Part shown: positions 1-18,626 of the stretch, piece after piece
How positions within the stretch are numbered: the first letter of the stretch is position 1
Layout: every line of letters starts with the position of its first letter
NCBI GenBank assembly: GCA_965371675.1
Contig: CBDUZK010000001.1
Coordinates: forward strand, 1-31,802
Length of the DNA: 31,802 nt
DNA from: an uncultured bacterium
Lineage (GTDB): Bacteria > Hydrothermota > Tepidihabitantia > Tepidihabitantales > Tepidihabitantaceae
Reading direction: 5' to 3'
Notes under the pieces: generated by a model
Told to the model about the DNA's origin: nothing
Database searches by the model: none
Seen by the model: the letters and a program-made list of their open reading frames with translations, nothing else
Program-made: the position numbers and the translations under genes

Positions 1-3000
1 TCATCACCGACGGCGCTCCGAAGCCGCGGCCAGCGGACGAGAAGCTGCGAATGAAGGAATCGACTATGGCAGAGTTCACAATCGCGCACAGGTAGTGCGC
101 TTCAGTCCTGGAGGACGCTGCGATCATCGACGTGGTATCGGTTGCTATGAGAGTTTTCCGCCCGAACGGCGTCTGGGTGGATGACAGGACCGTGCCGACC
201 ATTCTTCCTGCCATGCGCTTCCAGACTGTCCTGTACGACGCGAACGTCCATTCTCCGATGTTATACTGCGAGTAGAATGGAGCCTTAGGCACATATGTAT
301 CCGGTCGCCCTTCATGTGGTACTTTGTCACAGTAGTACTTCCGAAAGGCGGCCCGACGAAGGAGAACCGGCTTGAACACAGCAAGATATGCAAGCGTAAG
401 AGGCGCCTCGACCTCCAGGACGCCGGGGTCGATACCCTTCCGAGCTGCGGGGTCCTGTATGACAAGTGTGTAGAAGTGGCCCTTGGTTCCGTACCGCATT
501 AGCTCGCCCCCACTGACAGTCGGGTACACGAACTTGGTTTCGATCGATGTCCTGAGTGGTTTGATGCGTGTCTTGCCTCGGTCGTGCATGTTCGAAACGA
601 CCAGCAGTTTGTCCGGGCGGACTTCACGTACCTTGAGCCAGAAAACCCCGTACGGTTCTATCCGGGCACCAACCCACGGGCGGTACTTATTCTCGCCTTT
701 GAGTGCAGATAGAATATCGAGGTGGGTCTGGGTAGCGGTCTGCCACGACGACTCAATCCGATGAGGGTCAACGGGGATAGCCTGAAGGCTGGTTCGGAGT
801 GTATTCTTCCGGACCGTACCGATATCCCAGCCTGGGCGCACATGACCGATACCCTTCCTCGTGCGCCATTCCAACACCGGCACAGGGTACGTGGTCTTGC
901 GTCCCTTCTGCATCACAAACAGGGACGTCTTGTTTGCGGCTCGGAACGGCTTGAGGTTGACCATGTCCTCCATTCTCAGGACTTTGAGTGGGATACGTTT
1001 GTGTTTGATTTCGAATCCGCGGAAGCCCTCGCCTGCGCCCTTGGACTTGAAAACCTCCATCGTGATCAGGAACCCCAGCTTGCCTTTGTCCTTGAGGTAG
1101 TTGTCGGCACAGACGTAAGTGAAGAGCATCGAGAAGTCCTTCTCGCCGGCTCCGAGTCGTGTCTCGTGTCCTTTGAGCGAGAAGAGGCCGTAGCGATGCC
1201 ACATTTTCAGCGTCTTCCTGCGGTAGTCATCCGACAAGTAGCCCCACCGTATCCACGGCGGGTTGCCGATGACGAAGTCGAACTTGCCGACGTAGACCGG
1301 CGCGAAAGCGTTCTTTATGTACCGCGCCCAGATGCCGTCTTCTCCAGCTTCATCGATCTTCTTGATGCGCTTATAGACATCCTCCAGCATATCGATGTCA
1401 GTGACCTCGAGTTTAAACTCGTTCGTCAGTCGAGTTCGGAAGGCCTCAAGCGACAAACGATGGCCGCCGCGCAGGGCCATGTCGACCATCGCTGTGAACT
1501 TGTCGATTTGCTCCCTGTCCTGCATCGTGATCGGGAACTGGAAGGTCTCCCGGGAGGTAGTAAACACCAGCCGGTCCTTGAACTCGATCTCTCCCTCGTC
1601 CTCGTATCTGGATGGAGCCCGCACCGAGTCGCACAGGTAGACAGGCAGCGATATCGGCCGGACGTAGGGGATGAACCGGGCGAACGCCACCAGGTAGTTG
1701 GTCCGTGATGCCAGGACCGCCAGTGGGTTGAGGTCGAAACCGACGATATCCTCAAGCACCCGTCGTCCGTGCGATGCCGGATCAAGCTTGCCCTTCTTGC
1801 CGGCGGTATCAATGGCCCGGTGGATAGCCTGAACGAGAAATGTCCCCGAGCCACAGGCCGGGTCCAGGAAACGCGTCCCCGGCTTCCCTTTGTAGCCGGT
1901 TCGGTCGATGAGGTAGCCGGCAAGCCAGTCCGGCGTGTAGTACTCGCCGAGGGCATGGCGCAATTCCTTGGGTACTATGTCCTCGTACAGGTTCTGGAGC
2001 AGGTCGCGCGTCCAAGCCGGCTCTAGAACGGGCGTGGCCGCTTCAAACCGTGCCAGGGCCTCGACGGTCGTCCTGACCGCCCCGATCAACCCGGGTGACC
2101 AGGCGTCCAGGTACCAGGAGAAAAAGTCCGCTTCCAGGAAATTGACGATACCTCGCTCGGCGAACTCGGCTCCGCTTTCCATCTGGGACAGCTTTACTCG
2201 GAGTTCCTTGTCATTGACCGCTCCAAGGTCCGAGACAAAGGACTCCACCGAGCTACCTTGCTGTAGTGAAACCAACTCAACCGCAATCAATTTCATCAGG
2301 AGCGCGTAGTAAGTGTGGATAGCGAACAGCAGTTGCTTCAACCGTACGCCACCGGGCATCTCGTACAGCTCGGCGGTCTGAGCCGCAGCTGCCTGAGCTC
2401 TTGCCAGTTCCTGCCCGTAGACTACACCGAAGATACGGTCCCACTCCTTGAAGAACGTCCTGGTTCGGGATGCTGACTGCTGACGCTGAGCCTTCATAAC
2501 CGCAGTGTAGAGCTCGGCTACCATCCGACAGGCCACATCGTGGGGAGGGGCGAAGACTGCGGCCAGGTTCTGAGCTGTGAGAGGTCGCCGCTCGGACGCG
2601 CGGAAGAGCACGAGCAAGTTCGCGATACTGTACGCTGAGATCGGATACGGGCCGAGTATCTGGAATCCGCGTCGGACTTTGACCTCCGGGAACAACTCCT
2701 CTGCCGCCTGCTTACTGGGAACCGGAAGCTGCAGTAGGGTAGCGGTTTTGCTGAACCGAAGGAACAGGATGTTCTGTCCGTCCGTGGCAATGCCGACCGC
2801 CTTCTCCAGATAGTCTTCACGCATGCCTCCGTACTTCTTGGCGTCCGCTGTCAGGTACTTCTGGAGCTGCTGATTGACCTTGGCGACTTCGGCCTTGCTC
2901 TTCAAGCGTCCGGGTTTTTTGTACTCAATGGTGATGAAGCCGTAGACGCTGTCCCGGCGGCCACCGAAGGTCGTGGATGATTTCTCGTAGCGGACGCCAC

Positions 3001-3139
3001 TGACGTCCAGCCCCATCTGCTTCAAGGCGGCCTGCAGGATTGGCTCGAACGCCATCTTCAGATCCTCTTCAGTTATCGCCCGTCCCGCAGCCTTGAGAAT
3101 GGCCTTGGCGATACGGGCTGTGTCAGCTTCTGTTCCCAT
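1..3139 (-). CDS. Type IIG fused restriction endonuclease / N6-adenine methyltransferase (Eco57I/BseRI-like), 3' end truncated by window edge
   Basis: Hand translation of the minus strand from ATG at 3139 stays open to base 1 (>1046 aa). N-terminal PD-(D/E)xK-like 'RDSVYGFITIEYKKPG', motif X 'LGEYYTPDWLA', motif I 'FLDPACGSGTFL', motif IV 'FDFVIGNPPW', and a C-terminal TRD-like region. Absent from the ORF track because there is no stop in the window. Confidence 0.9.
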   Translation of the reverse strand, partial: MGTEADTARIAKAILKAAGRAITEEDLKMAFEPILQAALKQMGLDVSGVRYEKSSTTFGGRRDSVYGFITIEYKKPGRLKSKAEVAKVNQQLQKYLTADAKKYGGMREDYLEKAVGIATDGQNILFLRFSKTATLLQLPVPSKQAAEELFPEVKVRRGFQILGPYPISAYSIANLLVLFRASERRPLTAQNLAAVFAPPHDVACRMVAELYTAVMKAQRQQSASRTRTFFKEWDRIFGVVYGQELARAQAAAAQTAELYEMPGGVRLKQLLFAIHTYYALLMKLIAVELVSLQQGSSVESFVSDLGAVNDKELRVKLSQMESGAEFAERGIVNFLEADFFSWYLDAWSPGLIGAVRTTVEALARFEAATPVLEPAWTRDLLQNLYEDIVPKELRHALGEYYTPDWLAGYLIDRTGYKGKPGTRFLDPACGSGTFLVQAIHRAIDTAGKKGKLDPASHGRRVLEDIVGFDLNPLAVLASRTNYLVAFARFIPYVRPISLPVYLCDSVRAPSRYEDEGEIEFKDRLVFTTSRETFQFPITMQDREQIDKFTAMVDMALRGGHRLSLEAFRTRLTNEFKLEVTDIDMLEDVYKRIKKIDEAGEDGIWARYIKNAFAPVYVGKFDFVIGNPPWIRWGYLSDDYRRKTLKMWHRYGLFSLKGHETRLGAGEKDFSMLFTYVCADNYLKDKGKLGFLITMEVFKSKGAGEGFRGFEIKHKRIPLKVLRMEDMVNLKPFRAANKTSLFVMQKGRKTTYPVPVLEWRTRKGIGHVRPGWDIGTVRKNTLRTSLQAIPVDPHRIESSWQTATQTHLDILSALKGENKYRPWVGARIEPYGVFWLKVREVRPDKLLVVSNMHDRGKTRIKPLRTSIETKFVYPTVSGGELMRYGTKGHFYTLVIQDPAARKGIDPGVLEVEAPLTLAYLAVFKPVLLRRAAFRKYYCDKVPHEGRPDTYVPKAPFYSQYNIGEWTFASYRTVWKRMAGRMVGTVLSSTQTPFGRKTLIATDTTSMIAASSRTEAHYLCAIVNSAIVDSFIRSFSSAGRGFGAPSVM

Positions 3140-3148
3140 ATGCCAGCC

Positions 3149-3176
3149 AGCATATGCCCGTAGCTTCTACAGTCAA
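3149..3176 (-). promoter_or_regulatory. sigma70-like promoter of the RM gene
   Basis: Minus strand TTGACT-N16-TATGCT, 9 nt before ATG 3139; no SD. Confidence 0.6.
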
Positions 3177-3566
3177 GAGCGAACCGTTGAACATACGTAA
3201 GCTTCGTCATGGCAACCGGCTGGCGCACTTGTAGATTCATGAGCGTCGGAACTTCGGGCATGGGCCAAAACGAGGGTCGTTGCGGCGGCTGTGGTGAGGG
3301 TTCTTGCGGCGACCTGCTCGGTTGGTTTGAGCAGCGTCGCGGCGGCAGGACGGATGTCATCCATGAAGAGCGACACGCTGGCCGGCATGGGGTGGAAGGC
3401 GGCCCCCGGAGTGGTACAGGGGACGGCTGTGATGACCATGTCGTAGCAGGAAGCGACTTATTGCCAGGCATGCGGTGGTCATGTTGCGTTTTCGGTTCCA
3501 ATTCCCTGTGATTCCTGGCTGCGATAGTGCCGAATCCCCGCTGCTACCCCCACTCCCTACTGCATT

Positions 3567-3782
3567 CCCGGGGCGGCTCCGGTAGCGGCCCCCCTAGCCG
3601 CTGGGGGGATGGCTACCCCAATAACTACCCTAGCCGCTAGGGTAACGGCCAGGGTAGCCGCCAGGGTAACGGCCAGGGTAGCCACTGGGGTAGCGGTCAG
3701 GGTAGCCGCTCCCCTAGCCGCTGGGGGGACGGCCCCGGGGGCGGTTGGGGGGATAGCCCGGGGATACCCCCGGGGAGAGCCC
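3567..3782. repeat. Degenerate 12-bp-period minisatellite, ~18 units
   Basis: Units stay in phase, e.g. AGGGTAACGGCC, AGGGTAGCCGCC, AGGGTAGCCACT, GGGGTAGCGGTC, CCCCTAGCCGCT. Exact 19-bp repeat CCCCTAGCCGCTGGGGGGA at 3591-3609 and 3711-3729. Confidence 0.85.
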
Positions 3783-4002
3783 CCACGCTGAATTGTCAAC
3801 CCAGATAACACATTGGTTTGCCGGGCGTTAGCGGAAATGACCCGTCAGTTTATTTGTTTCATAGTGTTGATAGTCAATAAAGTGAACTATTCGGGCCGTA
3901 GGCGTAAGTGCTTGTTCCGAATTGCGAGTTGCGGATTCCGAATGGCGAATACTGCCCGGTACTCTTGGTGTCTACCCTGGGCTGCCCGACCCCGGAAACC
4001 CC

Positions 4003-4034
4003 TTGCCTTTATGCCAGCTTTACTGTAATATAAT
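4003..4034 (+). promoter_or_regulatory. Promoter for the MerR-like/VIT-vWA operon (leaderless)
   Basis: TATAAT at 4029-4034, 6 nt before ATG 4041. TTGCCT at 4003-4008 gives a 20-nt spacer, or 17 nt to the alternative -10 TAATAT at 4026-4031. Confidence 0.65.
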
Positions 4035-4040
4035 ACTGTC

Positions 4041-4475
4041 ATGAAAGAGCTACAAAAGTTCGGCCTCGATGAGGTGTGCGCGCTGACCGGGTTCCCGAAA
4101 CGGACGGTCCGGTATTACATCCAGCTCGGGCTGGTGGACCGGCCGGAGGGGTCGAAGCGGGGCGCGTATTACACCGGGTGTCACCTGGAACAGTTGCTCG
4201 CGGTGAAGACGTGGCAGCGTTCCGGGTTGTCGCTCGAACGGATTCGGGAGCTTCTGGGCAGCGAGGATGCCGCACTGGCGGTCCCGGCCAAAGGCCGCGG
4301 CGCGGGCACGGTCGAGGTCTGGAGCCACATGGTGCTGGGTGACGGGTTGGAGTTGCACGTCGAGCCCGGGCAGGCCGAGCTGAACCCGAAGCAGTTGCGC
4401 GCGCTCGCCCGGGGAGTCCGCGAGTTGATGGACGGCATCCGGTCGGCGGACCCGGAGCGCGGAAAGGAAAGCTGA
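4041..4475 (+). CDS. MerR-family helix-turn-helix protein
   Basis: 'FGLDEVCALTGFPKRTVRYYIQLGLVDRPEG..RGAYY..HLEQL' is a MerR-type wHTH. TGATG overlap with the next gene. Confidence 0.85.
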   Translation: MKELQKFGLDEVCALTGFPKRTVRYYIQLGLVDRPEGSKRGAYYTGCHLEQLLAVKTWQRSGLSLERIRELLGSEDAALAVPAKGRGAGTVEVWSHMVLGDGLELHVEPGQAELNPKQLRALARGVRELMDGIRSADPERGKES

Positions 4476-6706
4476 TGATAGGTTCACATTTGTCGGCGCC
4501 GGAGTTGAGGGTGCGAGGACAGGCCCGGGTCGTGCTGCAGGGCGTGGAGGTGGAAGCCAGGCTGCAGGACCTGGTATCCGAGGTGGAGATATGTCAGACG
4601 TACCGGAACCTAGAGCAGAGGAACATCGAAGCGGTGTATACGTTCGCGCTGCCGCTGGACGCGGTCCTGCTTGAACTGGTGGTGCACCTGGGCGAGCGGA
4701 AGCTCCGGGGGCACGTGGTCGAGAAGACCGAGGCCGAGGAGCGGTACGAGAATGCAATCACCGACGGCGACTCGGTTGTCATGCTCGAACGGGCGGCGGA
4801 CGGGGTCTACACGATGAACGTCGGCAACCTGATGGCGGGCGAGACCGCGCGGGTCCGGTTCCGTTACGCGTTGCTCCAGCAATGGCAGGACGACACGCTG
4901 CGGTTTCTCCTGCCGACCGTGATTGCCCCACGTTACGGAAGCGCCGCGCGGGCCGGGCTGGCGCCGCACCAGGAACCGGACACGGACACGACCGGTGACG
5001 TGGAGAACCGGTTTCGGCTCCGGGTCAAGGTGACAGGCCTGCTGCGGCAGGCGGAGTTTGACTGCCCGACCCACCGGGTTACGACCGAACGCGGGGAGGA
5101 ATCGACCGTGATATCCCTCGCCGACGGGTCCGCGGTCATGGACCGGGATTTCGTCCTGAATTTCCGGCTCGACCAGGCGGGAAGCGCGAGCGCAACCGTG
5201 AGCCGGGACCGGGACGGGTACGTCGCCCTTGCGTCATTCAACCCGCGTTTCCCGGTGAGGATGGACGACGCGCCCCGCAGCCTGAAGGTGGTAATCGATT
5301 GTTCCGGGTCGATGATGGGGGACTCGATTGGCCAGGCGCGCAGAGCATTTATGCGGATTCTGGATTCGCTCCGGCCGCAGGACTGTTTCAACATCGTGGT
5401 GTTCGGAAGCACGGCGCGGGCGCTGTTCCCAACGGGCAGGGAAGCGACCGGCCCGAATTTGATCCGCGCGCGCAAGTTCGCGCGCCAGATGGACGCGGAT
5501 ATGGGCGGGACCGAAATCGCACCGGCATTGAACCTGGCGTACCGGCTGACGATGCCGGCAGGAAAACCTCGCGGGGACGTACTGCTGATAACGGATGGAG
5601 AGTTCTGGAACGACGCGGTCGTAACCGAGGACGCTCGCGCATCGGGTCACCGGGTATTCACGGTCGGGGTCGGGAGCGCGGTGGCCGAAGCCGGGCTGCG
5701 CGAACTGGCCGACGCGACCGGGGGCGCGTGCGAGCTGGTGGCGCCAACCGAGGAGATGGCCGGGCACGTGTACCGGCATTTCCAGCGCATCTACCTCCCG
5801 CGTGCCGAACGGGTGAGCCTGAGCTGGCCAGCCGAGCCGGAGGAAGTGGAGTCGAGGCGATTGAACGCGGTCTTCTCCGGGGACACGGTGCACGTGTTCG
5901 CGCGGTTCCGCGAGCGGCCGGAGGGTACTGTCACACTGCGGGCCGAACTCACGGGCGGCAGGCGGGTAGAGCTGGCCACGGACATCCGCGCGCTGGAAAG
6001 CGGCGAAGCGGATGCCGGGCTTTCGACCCTGGCCCGGCTCGGGGCCGCGGCGAAGTTGCGCGGGTTGACCGCACGGCTCATCGACAACGGGGAACCGGAG
6101 GAACATGAGGACGTCCGGGCGCGGGCGGTCGAGCTTGCGACCGCGTACCAGTTGGTGAGTGAAGTGTCGAACTACCTGGTGCTGCACGTCCGGGCCGACG
6201 ATGAAAAGGCGGTGGACCTGCCCGACCTGCGCAAAGTGCGGCAGACCGTTGCCGCGGGCTGGCACGGGCTGGGGAGCGTGGCGATGGGGGCACCGGTAGC
6301 CTATTCCACCCGACGGAAGGCGAAGTTGATGTCGGTGGAGTACGGCATGGTGCTCCACGACGCACAACCGATGTTCCTGCGCAGAAACCTCGGCATAGAG
6401 AACCGCTTCATGTTCGCGTTGAACCAGTGCATTCCATCTGCGTCCGAACGCCTGCCGGTGACGTCCCTGCGTGACCTGGAAACGATGGGCCTGTCCGGTG
6501 AGTGGCTGTCCGCCCTACGGGCCCTGGTGGAAGTGGATGGCGAGGACGAGTACATGGTGGTCGTTGCCCTGCTCAAGGCCCTGGTCGACATGGACTCGGA
6601 AAAAGAGCTGTCCCTGAGGTTGAAACGGATGATTCGCAAGGCGTACAAGGAAGCGGGTGTTCCTCGCAAGCTACGGCACGCCGTCGGGCGGATTGTCACG
6701 CCGTGA
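4475..6706 (+). CDS. VIT + von Willebrand factor A domain protein
   Basis: N-terminal VIT-like region ('NIEAVYTFALPLDAVL...AEERYENAITDG'). Intact MIDAS residues: 'VIDCSGSM' (DxSxS), 'GGTE' (T), 'LITDG' (D). Confidence 0.9.
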   Translation: MIGSHLSAPELRVRGQARVVLQGVEVEARLQDLVSEVEICQTYRNLEQRNIEAVYTFALPLDAVLLELVVHLGERKLRGHVVEKTEAEERYENAITDGDSVVMLERAADGVYTMNVGNLMAGETARVRFRYALLQQWQDDTLRFLLPTVIAPRYGSAARAGLAPHQEPDTDTTGDVENRFRLRVKVTGLLRQAEFDCPTHRVTTERGEESTVISLADGSAVMDRDFVLNFRLDQAGSASATVSRDRDGYVALASFNPRFPVRMDDAPRSLKVVIDCSGSMMGDSIGQARRAFMRILDSLRPQDCFNIVVFGSTARALFPTGREATGPNLIRARKFARQMDADMGGTEIAPALNLAYRLTMPAGKPRGDVLLITDGEFWNDAVVTEDARASGHRVFTVGVGSAVAEAGLRELADATGGACELVAPTEEMAGHVYRHFQRIYLPRAERVSLSWPAEPEEVESRRLNAVFSGDTVHVFARFRERPEGTVTLRAELTGGRRVELATDIRALESGEADAGLSTLARLGAAAKLRGLTARLIDNGEPEEHEDVRARAVELATAYQLVSEVSNYLVLHVRADDEKAVDLPDLRKVRQTVAAGWHGLGSVAMGAPVAYSTRRKAKLMSVEYGMVLHDAQPMFLRRNLGIENRFMFALNQCIPSASERLPVTSLRDLETMGLSGEWLSALRALVEVDGEDEYMVVVALLKALVDMDSEKELSLRLKRMIRKAYKEAGVPRKLRHAVGRIVTP

Positions 6707-13244: not shown

Positions 13245-13272
13245 TTGACAGGTGACGGCGAAAACGTAGTAT
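13245..13272 (+). promoter_or_regulatory. Promoter of the DUF2769 lipoprotein
   Basis: TTGACA-N16-TAGTAT; SD AGGAGG at 13296-13301. Confidence 0.6.
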
Positions 13273-13306
13273 GTCCTGATTTCGTGTACACAAAAAGGAG
13301 GTGCCG

Positions 13307-13699
13307 GTGTTGAAGAGTTCGCTGTTCATTTTCCTGGCGTCCATGCTGGTGGCCGGCTTCGTGGCTTGCCCCGGACCGGAGCAGGTGGCGGAGAAGCCAC
13401 CCGTGCCGGCTGAAGAGAAGCCGATGACCGAAGAACAGAAGATGCAGTTCGTGATGGAGAACTGCGTCTGCAAGAACTGCCCGAGTTGGACCCCGGCCTG
13501 TGACGAGCAAGGTATATGGGGCGGCTTCTGCGCAATCGGGAAGACCGAGTGCATCACCAAGGAGCAGGGCTGTATCTGCCCCGAGTGCCCGGTCACGAAG
13601 AAGATGGGTCTGAAGTGGGGCTACTACTGCACCCGCGGCTCCGCCGAAGACATGATGAAGAAGGAAATGGAGAAGAAAGAGGGGGAAACGGGCGGATAG
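13307..13699 (+). CDS. Lipoprotein carrying a 10-Cys DUF2769-like domain
   Basis: Signal peptide plus lipobox FVA-C, a Pro/Glu linker, then CxCxxCPSW..C..GFC..GK..CI..GCICxxCPV..YYCxxG. Start set by SD spacing (13307 or 13310). Confidence 0.8.
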   Translation: MLKSSLFIFLASMLVAGFVACPGPEQVAEKPPVPAEEKPMTEEQKMQFVMENCVCKNCPSWTPACDEQGIWGGFCAIGKTECITKEQGCICPECPVTKKMGLKWGYYCTRGSAEDMMKKEMEKKEGETGG

Positions 13700-13705
13700 C
13701 CCGGT

Positions 13706-14008
13706 TTACTCCGCGCCTTCTTTTTTCGTAGGACTGTCGACCATCGCCGCCCGCCGCCTGCGGGCGGCGCGCTTTCGTCGCTGAAGCCACAGCTGAATGA
13801 AGATGATACTGCCGGTGACCGCCATGAACGCCAACCCTGCCGCCAGTGCGAGTGCGACGTACCTGCTGACCAGCGACCAGTTGTGCAACAGGCGTACATT
13901 GCGCTGGAGGCTGTCCAGCCGCAGCAGAAACCCGGTCACCGCCTGCAACAACACCAGCGGTGCGATGGTGATACCGGTGTATCGGTGCAACTTCCTGACT
14001 AGAATCAT
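13706..14008 (-). CDS. Small PepSY-associated-TM-like membrane protein
   Basis: SD AGGAG then MILVRKLHRYTGITIAPLVLLQAVTGFLL. The 'RKLHR..G...TG' motif and a second TM helix preceded by 'LLHNW'. Confidence 0.75.
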   Translation of the reverse strand: MILVRKLHRYTGITIAPLVLLQAVTGFLLRLDSLQRNVRLLHNWSLVSRYVALALAAGLAFMAVTGSIIFIQLWLQRRKRAARRRRAAMVDSPTKKEGAE

Positions 14009-14156
14009 GCTTCGCTCCTTTTGTCGGTGGCGTCGTAGCGGTCCGGGAACGCGACGCTCTCCAATGGCAGCCGTTCCGGACTGACCTTTTCGGCGCGACG
14101 TCCCACGATTATGATGACGTCGTGGCGATGGGTCGTATTGGCATTCATCGGTAGCC

Positions 14157-15938
14157 TCAGTCGGGCGACTTGGTGGCGGCCGCCATCTTGTCCGGGTCCA
14201 CAAGAGTCTCGACGAGGGCGGGGCGATCCGAGCCGAAAGCGGTTTCGAGCACTCCGTCGAGCCGGTGCGGATCCTCGACCCGGTAGCCATCGCCGCCGCA
14301 CGACTCGGCGAATGCCGCGAAGTTCGGGTTCGGGAAGCTGACTCCGTACTCCGGGTAGCCGTCGCGCGCCTGTTCTTTCTTGATGTTCTTCAGCTTGCCG
14401 TCGTTGAACACGACGACCTTGATTGCGAGCCCTTCACGGACCGCGGTCGTGAAGTCGGCGCCGAGCATTCCGAACCCACCGTCCCCGGTCAGGCAGACGA
14501 CCTGGCGGTCCGGGTAGTCAAGCTTGGCCGACAGCGCCGCCGGCAGTGCGAATCCCATCGATGCGATATTGGCGGAGAGGAACACACGCTGGCCTTCGCA
14601 TTGGAACTTCTTGAAGAACCAGTAGGTGTGGTCGCCGACGTCAACGGTGATGACCGCGTCCCGGGCCACATGGCGCTTGAGCGCCTGGATAGCGTAGCCC
14701 GGACTGACCGGCACCGCCATGTCTTTCGCGTCGGCCTCGAGCTCAACCCGGTGCCCGGCCTTGAGGGTCTCGATCCGACCCCAGAACTCCTCGTCCCGTT
14801 CTTTGGGATTGGTCTTGTCGAGCAACTGCCCAAGCACAAGTTCGGCGTCGCCGACAAGACCGACGTCGATGTCGAACGTCCGTCCGATGCGGGCCGGGTC
14901 GCGGTCGACCTGGACCATCTTGAGTCCGGCGGGGACGAGGTTGGCGTGTCGGAACCCGGTGCCGACGACGAGGACAAGTTCCGCCTGCTGGATCATCCGG
15001 GCGGCGTGCTTGGAGCCGATTGAGCCAAGGACACCGAGGCTCGATCGGTGGGTTTCATGAATGACACCCTTGGCCCGCGACGTGGTGGCGACCGGGGCGC
15101 TGAGTTTCTCCGCGAGCTTGAGCAGGTTCTCACCGGCGTGCCGGGCGCCCCAGCCGGCGATGATGACGATGCGGCGGCAGTTGTCGATCAGGCCGCCCGC
15201 GCGCAGGACCTTGTTCTCATCAGCCGGGTTTCGGTCGGTGAAGACCCGCTTGCGCGGCTTGTGGATCTTGCCGGCGAGCCGCTCGACCAGGACATCGGTC
15301 GGCGTGCTCAGCACCGCGACGCCCGGCCGGGCATAGGCGTGCCTGGCCGCGTTGATGACGAGCTTGAGCGCCTGGCTGGCGCGGGCAACCGTCTCCGAGT
15401 AGACGGTGAACGGGTGGAACAGCTCGAGCTGGTCGATTTCCTGGAACGCCTCGGAGCCGAGATACAGCTCTGCGACTTGGCCGGCGAGCGCCAGCACCGG
15501 CGCCCGGTCGGCGGACGCGTCCATCAACCCGGTAATCAGGTTGGTGGCGCCGGGCCCGGCGATGCTGATGCAGGCGCCGATATGGTCGGTCATCTTGCCG
15601 TGTGCCGAGGCCATGAACGCCGCGGTCTCCTCGTGCCGGGTGAGGACGAAACGAATGCTCTCGTGTCGACGGATTGCGTCGATAAGCGGCAGGTTCGAAT
15701 CGCCCGGGATACCGGACACGACCTTGATGCCGAGCGCAACCATCTGCTCGACGATCTTGTCGGCAACGGTAGTCAGGACCTTCTCGTCCTGCTCTTTGTC
15801 GACGCCCTCACGAACAAAGGCGGACTTGGGCGCGCCGCAGTTCGGACAGGTATAGGAATCCGGGAGGTCGGCGAATGGAACACCTTCCTTTCCCTCGTCG
15901 TATATCCAGTTGCAGACGGTACACCGGTATCTGGCCAT
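14157..15938 (-). CDS. Rubredoxin-fused thiamine-pyrophosphate enzyme (pyruvate oxidase/AHAS family)
   Basis: N-terminal '[12 protein letters not shown]...[14 protein letters not shown]'; 'GIPGDS', '[10 protein letters not shown]', '[11 protein letters not shown]'; TPP motif 'GDGGFGM...FNDG'. Confidence 0.9.
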
Positions 15939-15968
15939 CCGTTTCTCCTTCCGGCACCCGGCCGGTCG

Positions 15969-16229
15969 CTAGCCTCCGCTTGCCTGGTTCTGCTCCATCT
16001 CCGAACCGTCGGTGCAGAAGTAGATGTTCTTCAGTTCGAGTTTTTTAGTAACCGGGCAGCCGCCGCAGATACAGCCGTTCTGCTCGGTGATGCACTTCGA
16101 CTTGCCGATGGACGGGAAGCAGTAGCCGCCATCCTCACCGCACTCCTGCCACGACGGACAGTCGGGGCAGACGCACATCGCCAGCACCATCTTCTTTTTC
16201 TCTTCCATCTCCTGAGGGTTCATTTCCAC
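15969..16229 (-). CDS. DUF2769-like 10-Cys protein (copy B)
   Basis: Same Cys pattern as the other two copies. GTG 16229 gives MEMNPQEMEEKKKMVL, matching copy C. Confidence 0.85.
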   Translation of the reverse strand: MEMNPQEMEEKKKMVLAMCVCPDCPSWQECGEDGGYCFPSIGKSKCITEQNGCICGGCPVTKKLELKNIYFCTDGSEMEQNQASGG

Positions 16230-16313
16230 GGACATCCTCACTTTCCTGCGGGCGCGGTCGGCACCCGGTTGCTGTTTTTGCCTGTCAAAATCGTGCCCGC
16301 CGGGTCATTATCA

Positions 16314-16342
16314 ACGATACCGCGGACTGCTCCCGGTGACAA
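16314..16342 (-). promoter_or_regulatory. Promoter for the DUF2769-B / TPP enzyme unit
   Basis: TTGTCA-N17-TATCGT on the minus strand. Confidence 0.55.
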
Positions 16343-16363
16343 TTGACCGGGAAGAAGGCTGCC

Positions 16364-16723
16364 TCAGGCATCCGGTTCGCCGGACCGGTGGAAGGTCGCG
16401 ATTTCCCGGTCGAGAAAGAAACCGATTACGGTCCGGATTACGACAATCCCGCCAAGGAGCCCGATTTCGAGCAGGGTCGGGTGGATTATCGTCTCGAGTA
16501 CGTCCGCGGCAATCAGCAACTCGAGGCCAAGCAGCAGGTATCCTCCGAGTTGGTGGCGGAGAGCTTCGCGCGCGCGATCGGTATCGCGGCGGCGCAGCCG
16601 CCGGACTTCGCACCGGACGAACCGTACGAACGTCAGAGCCACGCCCCAGAGAATGACCGCTGCTCCGCAGTACCCGACTACGAGCGCGGTGTTGTGCAGG
16701 ACCAGGGCGGCAACATCACTCAT
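16364..16723 (-). CDS. DUF1622 family membrane protein
   Basis: 'RHQLGGYLLLGLELLIAADVLETI...LGGIVVIRTVIGFFLDREI' is the characteristic DUF1622 signature. Confidence 0.85.
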   Translation of the reverse strand: MSDVAALVLHNTALVVGYCGAAVILWGVALTFVRFVRCEVRRLRRRDTDRAREALRHQLGGYLLLGLELLIAADVLETIIHPTLLEIGLLGGIVVIRTVIGFFLDREIATFHRSGEPDA

Positions 16724-16768
16724 GTCGCCTCCGAACGCAGCGGTTCCTGGCCGCCGAACAGGTATTGT

Positions 16769-18262
16769 CTAGGCATGCCGAACCCCGGTGTGGCGCGAAA
16801 TCTCGGAGTTCGTCGTGCACAGGTCGTCAAGCGACAGCTTGTGGACGTCGTCATGGCCGGCCAGGCGCGCGAAATCCCGCAGTTCGTCGGTCGAGACCCG
16901 CAGGAAGTTCTCGAGCAGACGGGCCGAGATGTCGCCCTTGAGCCGGGCGCGCAGTTCCGGATCCTGGGTCGTCACGCCGACCGGGCACTTGCCTGTAGCG
17001 CAGAGCCGGTACTGCTGGCAGGCGCACGCCATCAGCGCGGCGGTGCCGCTTGCAACCGCATCCGCCCCCATCGCCAGCGCCTTGGCGAAGTCCGGTGACA
17101 CCCGCAGCCCGCCGGTAATCACGAGCGTGACGTCCTTCGCTCCCTGCGCGTCGAGGTACTTGCGCGCCCGGTGGAGGGCGTAGATCGTCGGCACCGAAGT
17201 TGAGTCCTTCACGAACTTCGGCGCGGCGCCGGTCGCTCCGGGCCGACCGTCGATGGTGATGAAATCCGGTCCTGCAGCAAGCGTTACCTCGAGGTCCGCT
17301 TCGATGTGCCCGGCCGCGAGCTTGATGCCGACGGGTTTACCGCCGGTCTTGTCACGCAGCCAGTCTACTTTGGCCTTGAGTTCATCCGCGGTGCGGATGT
17401 CATCGAAGTGTGCCGGGCTGATGATGTCCGAGCCCTCCGGGAAACCCCGCAGGCCGGCGATTTCCTTCGTCACCTTCTCGGCCGGGAGATGGCCGCCCAT
17501 GCCCGGCTTCGCGGACTGACCGATCTTGATTTCGACGGCGTCCACTTTCTGCAGGGTCTCGTCGGTCATGCTGTAGCGGTTGGGCACGTACTCGAAGATG
17601 TACTTGTAGGACGCTGCCATTGACTCGGCCAGGATGCCGCCCTCCCCCGAGCACATCACGGTCTTGACTGCGGCGCTGCCCTTGGCGAGAGCGAGCTTCG
17701 CCTCGCGTGACAGGGCACCGAGGGACATGTGGGTGATGTACACCGGCGTCTCAATGACCAACGGGTGCTTCGCCTTCGGCCCGATGATGGTCCGCGTGCT
17801 GACTGGCTCTTCGCGATTCAAGGGCAGGTGCGCGAGCTGCGCGCCGAGAATCAGGATATCGTCCCACGATACGACCGGCCGGGTGGTACGCATCGGCTCG
17901 GTGATGGATCGTCCCGTGCCCGCGATTCGGTGGATGTCTTCCATGCGGGTTTCAAGCTCGTCCGATTTCCGCTTCCACTCACCAAGGTAGCTCTCGATAT
18001 CCACGGTCTCGGAATGGACATGGGTGAAACTAACCCTGGTCTTTGCGCCGCATACCGGACAGGTTATTTCCTGCTCCACGGGTTCGGCCGCGGGCTTTGC
18101 CCCGACCGGCTTCAGGTGGTCCTTGTTCGACCGGCAGACCGGGCACTCCCAGCCGTCAGGGAAATCCTCGGGCCTAGTGCCCGGCTTGATGCCGGCTTTG
18201 GAATCGCCCCGCGTGTCGTCATACTTGTACACACGGCACACGTCACACTGGTACTTCGCCAT
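16769..18262 (-). CDS. Rubredoxin-fused FMN-binding glutamate-synthase-family protein (stand-alone GltB2-like)
   Basis: Rubredoxin 'CDVC..YDDTRGD..GIKPGT..FPDGWECPVC' plus an extra CPVC. Synthase-family motifs 'SGEGG', 'EIKIGQSAKPGMGGHLP', 'ISPAHF', 'DGRPGATGAAP', 'GGLR' and the 3Fe-4S motif CQQYRLCATGKC (CX5CX4C). No amidotransferase domain. Confidence 0.9.
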   Translation of the reverse strand: MAKYQCDVCRVYKYDDTRGDSKAGIKPGTRPEDFPDGWECPVCRSNKDHLKPVGAKPAAEPVEQEITCPVCGAKTRVSFTHVHSETVDIESYLGEWKRKSDELETRMEDIHRIAGTGRSITEPMRTTRPVVSWDDILILGAQLAHLPLNREEPVSTRTIIGPKAKHPLVIETPVYITHMSLGALSREAKLALAKGSAAVKTVMCSGEGGILAESMAASYKYIFEYVPNRYSMTDETLQKVDAVEIKIGQSAKPGMGGHLPAEKVTKEIAGLRGFPEGSDIISPAHFDDIRTADELKAKVDWLRDKTGGKPVGIKLAAGHIEADLEVTLAAGPDFITIDGRPGATGAAPKFVKDSTSVPTIYALHRARKYLDAQGAKDVTLVITGGLRVSPDFAKALAMGADAVASGTAALMACACQQYRLCATGKCPVGVTTQDPELRARLKGDISARLLENFLRVSTDELRDFARLAGHDDVHKLSLDDLCTTNSEISRHTGVRHA

Positions 18263-18295
18263 CAACTCGCTCCCTGTTCGGCAGCAGACAACGGG

Positions 18296-18547
18296 CTACA
18301 TTCCTGACTGCTCTTTCTCGGAACCCTTCGTGCAGTAGTAGGTGTGCTTCAGCTCCATCTTGGCGTACACGGGACAGCCGCCGCAGATACAGCCCTTCTC
18401 CTCGGTAATGCATTTGCTCTTTCCAATCATCGGGAAGCAGAATCCGCCCTGCTCGTCGCATTCGACCCAGCTCGGGCAGTTCTTGCATATGCACATCGAA
18501 AGGACCATCTTCTTCTTCTCTTCCATCTCCTGAGGGGTCATCTCCAT
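18296..18547 (-). CDS. DUF2769-like 10-Cys protein (copy C)
   Basis: 10-Cys pattern; SD GGAGG upstream. Confidence 0.85.
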   Translation of the reverse strand: MEMTPQEMEEKKKMVLSMCICKNCPSWVECDEQGGFCFPMIGKSKCITEEKGCICGGCPVYAKMELKHTYYCTKGSEKEQSGM

Positions 18548-18598
18548 CTCTCCTCCCTGGTCATTGTTGTCCCCGACTGCGCCCGGCCGGGTCAGCAG

Positions 18599-18626
18599 AT
18601 TATAGCCCCCTCAGGTCACGGGGCAA
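18599..18626 (-). promoter_or_regulatory. Promoter for the DUF2769-C / glutamate synthase-like unit
   Basis: TTGCCC-N16-TATAAT. Confidence 0.6.

Follow-up and report, generated by a model that had tools for sequence, protein, structure and literature searches.

The window analysed here, a stretch of 31,802 nucleotides (nt) from contig CBDUZK010000001.1 of an uncultured Hydrothermota bacterium (assembly GCA_965371675.1), carries a cluster in which two small cysteine-rich proteins of the family DUF2769 each stand directly before an enzyme that begins with a rubredoxin (Rd) domain. DUF2769 is a large family without assigned function. Our comparison across Bacteria and Archaea shows that the link between DUF2769 and Rd-fused enzymes is real, yet clade-specific and optional. 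Our judgement is evenly poised on whether the cluster as a whole is a horizontally acquired modular redox unit in which the two proteins, DUF2769-B and DUF2769-C, act as accessory electron-transfer partners and feed reductases of O2 and reactive oxygen species (ROS).

Gene content of the cluster

A Pfam scan placed seven genes at 13301-18547 of the window, six on the minus strand and one, DUF2769-A, on the plus strand and convergent with them. The minus-strand order is DUF2769-C, an Rd-fused enzyme with a glutamate-synthase-like flavin mononucleotide (FMN) domain (Rd::GltS, where "::" denotes a fusion), a DUF1622 membrane protein, DUF2769-B, an Rd-fused thiamine pyrophosphate (TPP) enzyme (Rd::TPP) and a small two-helix membrane protein. 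All domain calls exceed the Pfam cut-offs with the sole exception of the PepSY_TM match of the small membrane protein. The arrangement of three DUF2769 genes and two Rd-fused enzymes described in the original prediction, which had been made from the DNA letters, stands. The five genes concerned are:

13301..13699, plus strand: DUF2769-A (PF10967, 63 bits), with a signal peptide, a lipobox-like ...GFVA-C, a Pro/Glu linker and the 10-Cys domain
14157..15938, minus strand: Rd::TPP, a PoxB-like enzyme of 593 amino acids (aa), with Rubredoxin at residues 3-41 and TPP_enzyme_N, M and C
15969..16241, minus strand: DUF2769-B (PF10967, 55.7 bits), likely start at the ATG at 16235, 30 nt upstream of Rd::TPP
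16769..18265, minus strand: Rd::GltS, 498 aa, with Rubredoxin at residues 4-49 (55.7 bits) and Glu_synthase (PF01645, 324 bits)
18296..18547, minus strand: DUF2769-C (PF10967, 59.3 bits), 30 nt upstream of Rd::GltS

Each DUF2769 copy covers positions 1-57 of the 57-position PF10967 model and exceeds its gathering cut-off of 22.8 bits; all three are members of the family. The assembly (2.6 Mb, 91% complete) has no other DUF2769 gene, and by our own rough estimate the chance of all three falling within 5.3 kb is about 0.002. The ribosome-binding site ahead of the TPP gene is strong.

Association of DUF2769 with rubredoxin-fused enzymes

The same-strand neighbours of 134 DUF2769 genes on 130 loci, sampled from 301 Halobacteriota genomes, were scanned against Pfam. 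Genes in this census were called by hidden Markov model, on simple open reading frames. The family occurs in 120 of the 301 genomes, with about 330 copies and up to 15 per genome. Its commonest downstream neighbour is Rubredoxin, found at nine of 50 scorable positions (eight Rd::Glu_synthase and one Rd::TPP) against about 0.01 expected by chance on our rough figure of ~57 such genes in ~0.7 million, an enrichment that is overstated because the genomes are related and the counts not independent. The original prediction had named precisely this enrichment as its test, and it is borne out.

In a domain tree all Rd-linked DUF2769 proteins, copies B and C included, fall into one clade. Members of this clade that lack an Rd enzyme adjoin KatG, FNR-like reductases, DUF362 or carbonic anhydrase. 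Other clades adjoin radical-SAM activase-like, CobB/CfbB-like, KatG, peroxiredoxin or glutathione peroxidase, and FNR-like genes. The idea that DUF2769 is "dedicated" to Rd fusions therefore had to be given up: a single clade is linked, its pairing is optional, and the other clades sit elsewhere.

Within the linked clade the arrangement is widespread. At least six phylum-level lineages, bacterial and archaeal, have B/C-type DUF2769 immediately before Rd::TPP or Rd::GltS; the spacing is 11-31 nt in WOR-3/Stahlbacteria, an unclassified bacterium, Thermoplasmatales, Archaeoglobaceae, Methanosarcinaceae and Methanofollis. DUF2769 also precedes an Rd enzyme in Aenigmarchaeota (operon order DUF2769-Rd-Rd::GltS) and Methanoperedenaceae (DUF1622-DUF2769-Rd::GltS). 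Copies that precede Rd::TPP in WOR-3/Stahlbacteria and a Thermoplasmatales archaeon share 82-86% identity with DUF2769-C itself. For the reverse census we took 23 full-length Rd::GltS genes and 14 close Rd::TPP orthologues from the same 301 genomes. DUF2769 accompanies Rd::GltS in 10 of the 23 cases, nine times directly upstream and once in a DUF2769-Rd::TPP-Rd::GltS operon. In the TA06 locus L227 (loci are cited by our own labels), a 74-aa gene upstream of Rd::GltS was rejected as a DUF2769 candidate, and it encodes one Cys only.

Upstream of DUF2769, the commonest family in the forward census is Radical_SAM (11 of 76 neighbours), followed by tRNA methyltransferase (6). A clade of 71-75-aa DUF2769 proteins directly follows a ~335-aa radical-SAM gene that resembles glycyl-radical activases or AmmeMemoRadiSam (L088, L095, L101, L117, L120, L140, L141, L152 and others), and is itself followed by an unannotated gene of ~335-355 aa. 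We judged it unlikely that DUF2769 is a radical-SAM peptide precursor, because it is confidently folded and is found fused to enzymes.

DUF2769 shares its slots with one-electron carriers

The position held by DUF2769 can be filled by other proteins. Upstream of Rd::GltS the slot is taken by a free rubredoxin of 53-57 aa in five of the 23 cases, and six of 23 have none of these partners; in two of 23, Fer4_19 and two CDGSH domains are fused N-terminally before the Rd domain. Upstream of Rd::TPP stands a 211-aa protein with two CDGSH domains and Fer4_19 (5/14) or a molybdopterin-oxidoreductase-domain protein (2/14). DUF2769 also occurs as an N-terminal fusion to Glu_synthase, in L124 (475 aa), L155 (483 aa) and L191 (490 aa). 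The fused domain there occupies the place that rubredoxin has in the window protein, and in L124 and L191 a further DUF2769 gene lies upstream.

Like rubredoxin, the [2Fe-2S] protein CDGSH and the mono-cluster ferredoxin Fer4_19, DUF2769 is small and Cys-rich and serves the same slots on the same two enzymes; it differs from them as a separate sequence family with a predicted fold that has no solved relative. Cross-domain synteny and the DUF2769::Glu_synthase fusions together confirm, on comparative grounds, a functional link between DUF2769 and these enzymes. Since its slot is otherwise filled by one-electron carriers, DUF2769 is by analogy most likely a small metal-thiolate electron-transfer module.

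The fusions vary further. A four-module protein of Fer4_19, two CDGSH domains, rubredoxin and Glu_synthase is encoded at L163:1495-3705, and proteins of 720-748 aa of this kind are P0003-P0007, P0015 and P0016. The separate 211-aa Fer4_19/CDGSH gene precedes Rd::TPP in L193-L196 and L206, and an Oxidored_molyb protein of 214-219 aa lies directly upstream of Rd::TPP at L197:3494-4153 and L200:3408-4052.

The two enzymes themselves also travel together. In L025, L232 and L233 Rd::TPP lies next to Rd::GltS, and in L012 and L014 the two form one short divergent cluster. An Rd-less pair, a GltS-like enzyme of ~416-425 aa followed by a PoxB-like TPP enzyme of ~530-560 aa, is found in at least 16 Halobacteriota genomes (for example G119:C51:1353-4471 and G050:C1:1661914-1665034). 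Because the enzymes are adjacent in several unrelated loci, with and without Rd, they probably act in one pathway.

A cysteine-rich domain with a confident predicted fold

Ten Cys are invariant across copies A, B and C, in agreement with the original prediction. Among 137 members family-wide, eight Cys are invariant and form two CxCxxC...C half-sites; these correspond to C19, C21, C24, C37, C53, C55, C58 and C72 in copy C numbering and are present in all three copies. The two further Cys of the window copies occur in about half of the family. The AlphaFold2 model of DUF2769-C is confident (pLDDT 92.6), which argues for a folded domain.

Structural comparison gave no lead to function. The DUF2769 profile had no match among PDB sequences at E values up to 10. 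A fold search with the model returned no Foldseek hit in the PDB and a best Z of 2.1 in a wide VIA-align search; among AFDB clusters it found DUF2769 relatives only. The few papers found that mention DUF2769 do not study its function. A complex prediction for DUF2769-C with Rd::GltS gave neither support for nor evidence against binding and was not used either way.

The glutamate-synthase-like enzyme

The start of Rd::GltS is probably the ATG one codon in, and a database copy of the same protein has 497 aa. Its rubredoxin domain passes the PF00301 cut-off of 23 bits, and the CDVC...CPVC pairs are readable in the translation. Residues C416, C422, C427 and P428 are invariant in 31 homologues and form a C-x5-C-x4-C-P motif, which in glutamate synthases is the [3Fe-4S] site. 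The FMN synthase domain and the cluster motif are common to Rd::GltS and the glutamate synthase large subunit (e.g. PDB 7MFM, 1LLW, 1EA0). The latter has ~1500 aa, whereas the GltS part in the window has ~400 aa and lacks the amidotransferase and C-terminal GXGXG domains; there is also no small subunit, and rubredoxin stands in its stead. In keeping with this, the NCBIfam model of the large subunit gives 135 bits against a cut-off of 1047 and matches only at positions 865-1157 of 1490, and the protein falls outside that family.

Public sources list relatives of Rd::GltS as "glutamate synthase-related protein" or "rubredoxin", and such proteins are frequent in Methanosarcinales, Methanomicrobiales, Methanoperedenaceae, ANME-2, Aenigmarchaeota, TA06 and Aminicenantes. 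In L187 and L188, GltS-like genes show four in-frame stops in the genome-search match, yet a ~411-aa open reading frame matches.

The PoxB-like enzyme

The rubredoxin domain of Rd::TPP scores 38.1 bits against the same cut-off of 23 and has readable CTVC...CPNC pairs, and TPP_enzyme_N, M and C all exceed their cut-offs, giving the three-domain architecture of a TPP enzyme. Among solved chains E. coli PoxB comes nearest (3EY9/3EYA, E 3e-81), with Lactobacillus pyruvate oxidase (1POX) next. The NCBIfam models for pyruvate oxidase/PoxB score below their cut-offs (NF006377, 469.7 against 742 bits; NF006591, 363.2 against 792 bits), and we therefore call the enzyme PoxB-like rather than a pyruvate oxidase. 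We read it as a 2-oxoacid oxidase that probably uses flavin adenine dinucleotide (FAD) as well as TPP. With E. coli PoxB, a pyruvate:ubiquinone oxidoreductase, and Lactobacillus pyruvate oxidase it has the three TPP-enzyme domains in common, and like PoxB it would use an external electron acceptor rather than O2; the N-terminal rubredoxin is an addition of the window enzyme.

PoxB-like TPP enzymes with two tandem N-terminal rubredoxin domains are encoded at L211:1303-3273, L213:1312-3276 and L217:1495-3540. One Rd::TPP orthologue (L202, G283:C2:60471-62243) has a single in-frame TAG. This stop, like those of L187 and L188, could reflect a pseudogene, a frame problem or recoding.

Origin of the cluster and the exported copy A

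Neither Rd::GltS nor Rd::TPP was found in any of 40 related genomes. Proteins of WOR-3/Stahlbacteria and several archaeal classes match copies B and C and both enzymes at 65-86% identity. We conclude from these comparisons that the module was acquired horizontally. Comparison of the window flanks with the A-type loci of the relatives matched no flank and gave no insertion point for the module.

Copy A has another history. It lies outside the clade of B and C in the domain tree and groups with A-type copies of the related genomes. Six of the 40 have a single DUF2769 gene, which is of the A type in every case and occurs without the enzymes. The nearest relatives of copy A are in Candidatus Fermentibacteraceae, the family to which the genome would belong by this measure. 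All A-type proteins have a signal peptide that ends in a lipobox-like ...A-C and is followed by a Pro/Glu/Ala linker, by which copy A is a resident paralogue exported as a lipoprotein. The signal peptides of copy A and its relatives are of the Sec type and have no twin-arginine motif. The lipoprotein form proposed for copy A in the original prediction is thus upheld. Its place in the module is not, as copy A belongs to a different, family-typical clade and occurs without the enzymes in relatives. We treat DUF2769-A as a paralogue separate from the enzyme module.

In three related genomes a 167-aa gene is divergent from A-type DUF2769 (L004:1950-2453, L008:1956-2459, L009:724-1227). By Pfam it is a SufT/DUF59-like FeS_assembly_P gene in L008 and L009, an identity inferred for L004 from equal length; the L004 product has a hydrophobic N-terminus.

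Oxidative-stress context

An oxidative-stress operon is encoded elsewhere in the same genome (contig C4:7500-17500 of G000; locus L226, ~1971-6604). It comprises a FUR-family (PerR-like) regulator, rubrerythrin, peroxiredoxin (Redoxin/AhpC), desulfoferrodoxin, ferritin, a flavodiiron protein (ODP+flavodoxin) and a Flavin_Reduct::Rd fusion. Rubrerythrin, superoxide reductase and flavodiiron protein are thus all present as terminal reductases, the same kinds as in the NROR-rubredoxin-rubrerythrin/superoxide reductase/flavodiiron chains of anaerobes. The assembly has three Rd domains in total, the third being that of Flavin_Reduct::Rd, and no free rubredoxin. One archaeal lineage (L019, L020, L023, L024) encodes, in this order, a flavodiiron protein, Rd, 2-oxoacid:ferredoxin oxidoreductase, DUF2769 and Rd::TPP, and there a metallo-beta-lactamase-fold protein precedes the flavodiiron protein.

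In Clostridioides difficile, CD630_08280 ("GltD") is described by its authors as an Rd-fused "oxidative stress glutamate synthase", encoded in the PerR-controlled rbr-perR-rbo operon, that strongly stimulates the reduction of H2O2 by rubrerythrin (10.1101/2024.09.17.613384; PMC11481553). No DUF2769 is reported in the clostridial system, to which the window adds a PoxB-like Rd enzyme and small Cys-rich proteins; the window cluster, in contrast, is not beside PerR or the reductases. Taken together, these observations make a role of the cluster in O2/ROS stress plausible. At L181:1005-1442, a neighbour of DUF2769-Rd::GltS is a lipoprotein cupredoxin whose C-terminal region has a type-1 copper motif (C-x2-H-x3-M).

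Membrane-protein companions, promoter motifs and read support

Two membrane-protein genes and three sigma-70-like motifs accompany the genes above; the motifs are consensus matches only:

13245..13272, plus strand: motif before DUF2769-A, TTGACA-16-TAGTAT, 10/12 matches
13706..14008, minus strand: small two-helix membrane protein, PepSY_TM 22.8 and DUF4405 20.4 bits, both below cut-off
16314..16342, minus strand: motif before DUF2769-B, TTGTCA-17-TATCGT, 9/12 matches
16364..16723, minus strand: DUF1622 membrane protein downstream of Rd::GltS, PF07784 86.7 bits (above the cut-off of 24)
18599..18626, minus strand: motif before DUF2769-C, TTGCCC-16-TATAAT, 10/12 matches

The motifs lie where the original prediction had placed promoters, and six such motifs were found against 1.0 expected from shuffled sequence. 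DUF1622 adjoins Rd::GltS in L225 and L231 and Rd::TPP in L215, which with the window makes four independent loci, and it may be a membrane partner of these enzymes. The small two-helix protein was also proposed as part of the recurring unit, under the name PepSY-TM. That label is weak, since the match to PF03929 scores 22.8 against a cut-off of 28.8 and covers only model positions 2-25 of 295. We rejected this protein as a conserved part of the module, having found no homologue after Rd::TPP in other loci; the 114-aa genes in that position in L199-L201 encode unrelated soluble proteins. Of the two membrane proteins, DUF1622 is the one that recurs.

Logan contigs from two marine-sediment runs give independent coverage of the region, at an even depth of ~5-8. 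The pieces listed bridge the upstream gene, copy A and the small membrane-protein gene; Rd::TPP and copy B; copy B, DUF1622 and Rd::GltS; Rd::GltS and copy C; and copy C and the downstream gene. No listed piece spans ~13989-14210 (~220 bp, from the small membrane-protein gene to the 3' end of the TPP gene), where depth is unbroken. A chimeric assembly is unlikely, because the contigs tile the region at even depth and bridge all listed junctions but one. At 17520-17820 the summed contig depth is 48 in run X1, against 5-8 elsewhere, and likely reflects a conserved Glu_synthase stretch common to other organisms in the sample. The sequencing runs that hold the window are DNA-type marine-sediment runs only, and a search for an RNA run gave none.

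Possible roles of DUF2769

In the electron-transfer reading, the N-terminal rubredoxin of each enzyme would be a built-in one-electron port, and DUF2769-B and -C would be small folded metal-thiolate proteins that exchange electrons with the Rd-fused enzymes. The likely role would then be to carry electrons from the oxidation of a 2-oxoacid or glutamate, independently of NAD(P)H, to rubredoxin-dependent O2/ROS reductases. More speculatively, the GltS-like enzyme might oxidise glutamate to 2-oxoglutarate and the PoxB-like enzyme might decarboxylate 2-oxoglutarate oxidatively, both unloading onto rubredoxins. The widest form of this reading is one that we hold tentatively, as possible rather than probable. 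Small metal-cluster electron carriers would here gain a new class, DUF2769, which would do the work of rubredoxin or ferredoxin with a fold unseen in solved structures. Anaerobic archaea would use it widely, as a free protein, an N-terminal fusion or an exported lipoprotein. In the bacterium of the window it would connect the two Rd-fused dehydrogenases with ROS reductases, and the route might lead through the membrane, by way of DUF1622 or the small membrane protein, to a periplasmic copy A.

Several observations weigh against a carrier of this kind. The domain matches neither a Fer4 nor an Rd Pfam family, the ferredoxin motif CxxCxxCxxxCP is absent, and its own CxCxxCP differs from the canonical motifs of ferredoxins and rubredoxins. 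Thiolate clusters of Zn or Cu typically have CxC motifs as well. A pre-assembled Fe-S cluster would sit uneasily with the Sec-type export of copy A. The pairing is optional: DUF2769 lies upstream of only two of the 14 Rd::TPP genes and is missing from 12, the closest relative of Rd::GltS (82% identity) has the order Rd::GltS-DUF1622 and no DUF2769, and most DUF2769 paralogues sit in unrelated contexts. The likeness to CD630_08280, an N-terminal rubredoxin on a glutamate-synthase-type protein in both, is drawn from the descriptions in the papers. Of the partner role first proposed for DUF2769, the tie of the B/C clade to Rd-fused enzymes is retained; dedication, copy A and the PepSY-TM gene are not.

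The main rival is that DUF2769 carries no electrons but is a Zn/Cu-thiolate redox or metal switch, sensor, holdase or buffer, which protects or regulates its neighbouring enzymes when oxidants, heat or metals cause stress. We consider this rather unlikely; in its favour are the Sec-type lipoprotein forms, which could load Zn or Cu outside the cytoplasm, and the CxC motifs. A small CxC/CxxC-rich domain with 8-10 Cys would suit such a protein, as would the cupredoxin lipoprotein beside DUF2769-Rd::GltS in L181 and the presence of KatG, peroxiredoxin and glutathione peroxidase among DUF2769 neighbours. A small M. mazei DUF2769 protein was detected only under heat stress (PMC12704099). Against these points, the gene and fusion slots are otherwise held by bona fide electron carriers (Rd, CDGSH/Fer4_19), a domain that takes the place of Rd at the N-terminus of the FMN/[3Fe-4S] core is as expected for an electron port, and DUF2769 has no associated DNA-binding or chaperone domain.

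Improbable in our view is a metallochaperone or maturation factor that gives Fe or Fe-S to the partner rubredoxin, to [3Fe-4S] centres and, elsewhere, to radical-SAM proteins. Such a factor would account for DUF2769 as the first gene of the operon, directly before metal-centre-rich enzymes, for the clades that follow radical-SAM genes (the 11 of 76 above) and for A-type copies that adjoin the FeS_assembly_P gene in three related genomes, L004 by length only. It would not be expected to be replaced by rubredoxin or CDGSH, or to be permanently fused in the place of Rd, and most Rd::TPP and many Rd::GltS genes manage without DUF2769. That there is no functional link at all, and a small gene merely shares inherited synteny or hitch-hikes with a mobile enzyme cassette, is very improbable: the pairing is optional, limited to one clade and counted in many related, non-independent genomes, but the 11-31-nt spacing is kept across Bacteria and Archaea while the flanks differ completely, DUF2769 pairs with two different enzymes, and DUF2769::Glu_synthase fusions exist.

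The comparative evidence turns the electron-transfer reading into a testable hypothesis, that DUF2769 is interchangeable with rubredoxin and CDGSH/Fer4_19 on two Rd-fused flavoenzymes. The GltS-like and PoxB-like enzymes form a conserved pair, which suggests a two-step pathway not yet described. If the reading is true, methanogens, anaerobic methane oxidisers and sediment bacteria would have a new type of carrier, and the poorly understood "oxidative stress glutamate synthase" family would gain a named partner. It would also help to account for the supply of electrons to O2/ROS reductases in strict anaerobes independently of NAD(P)H.

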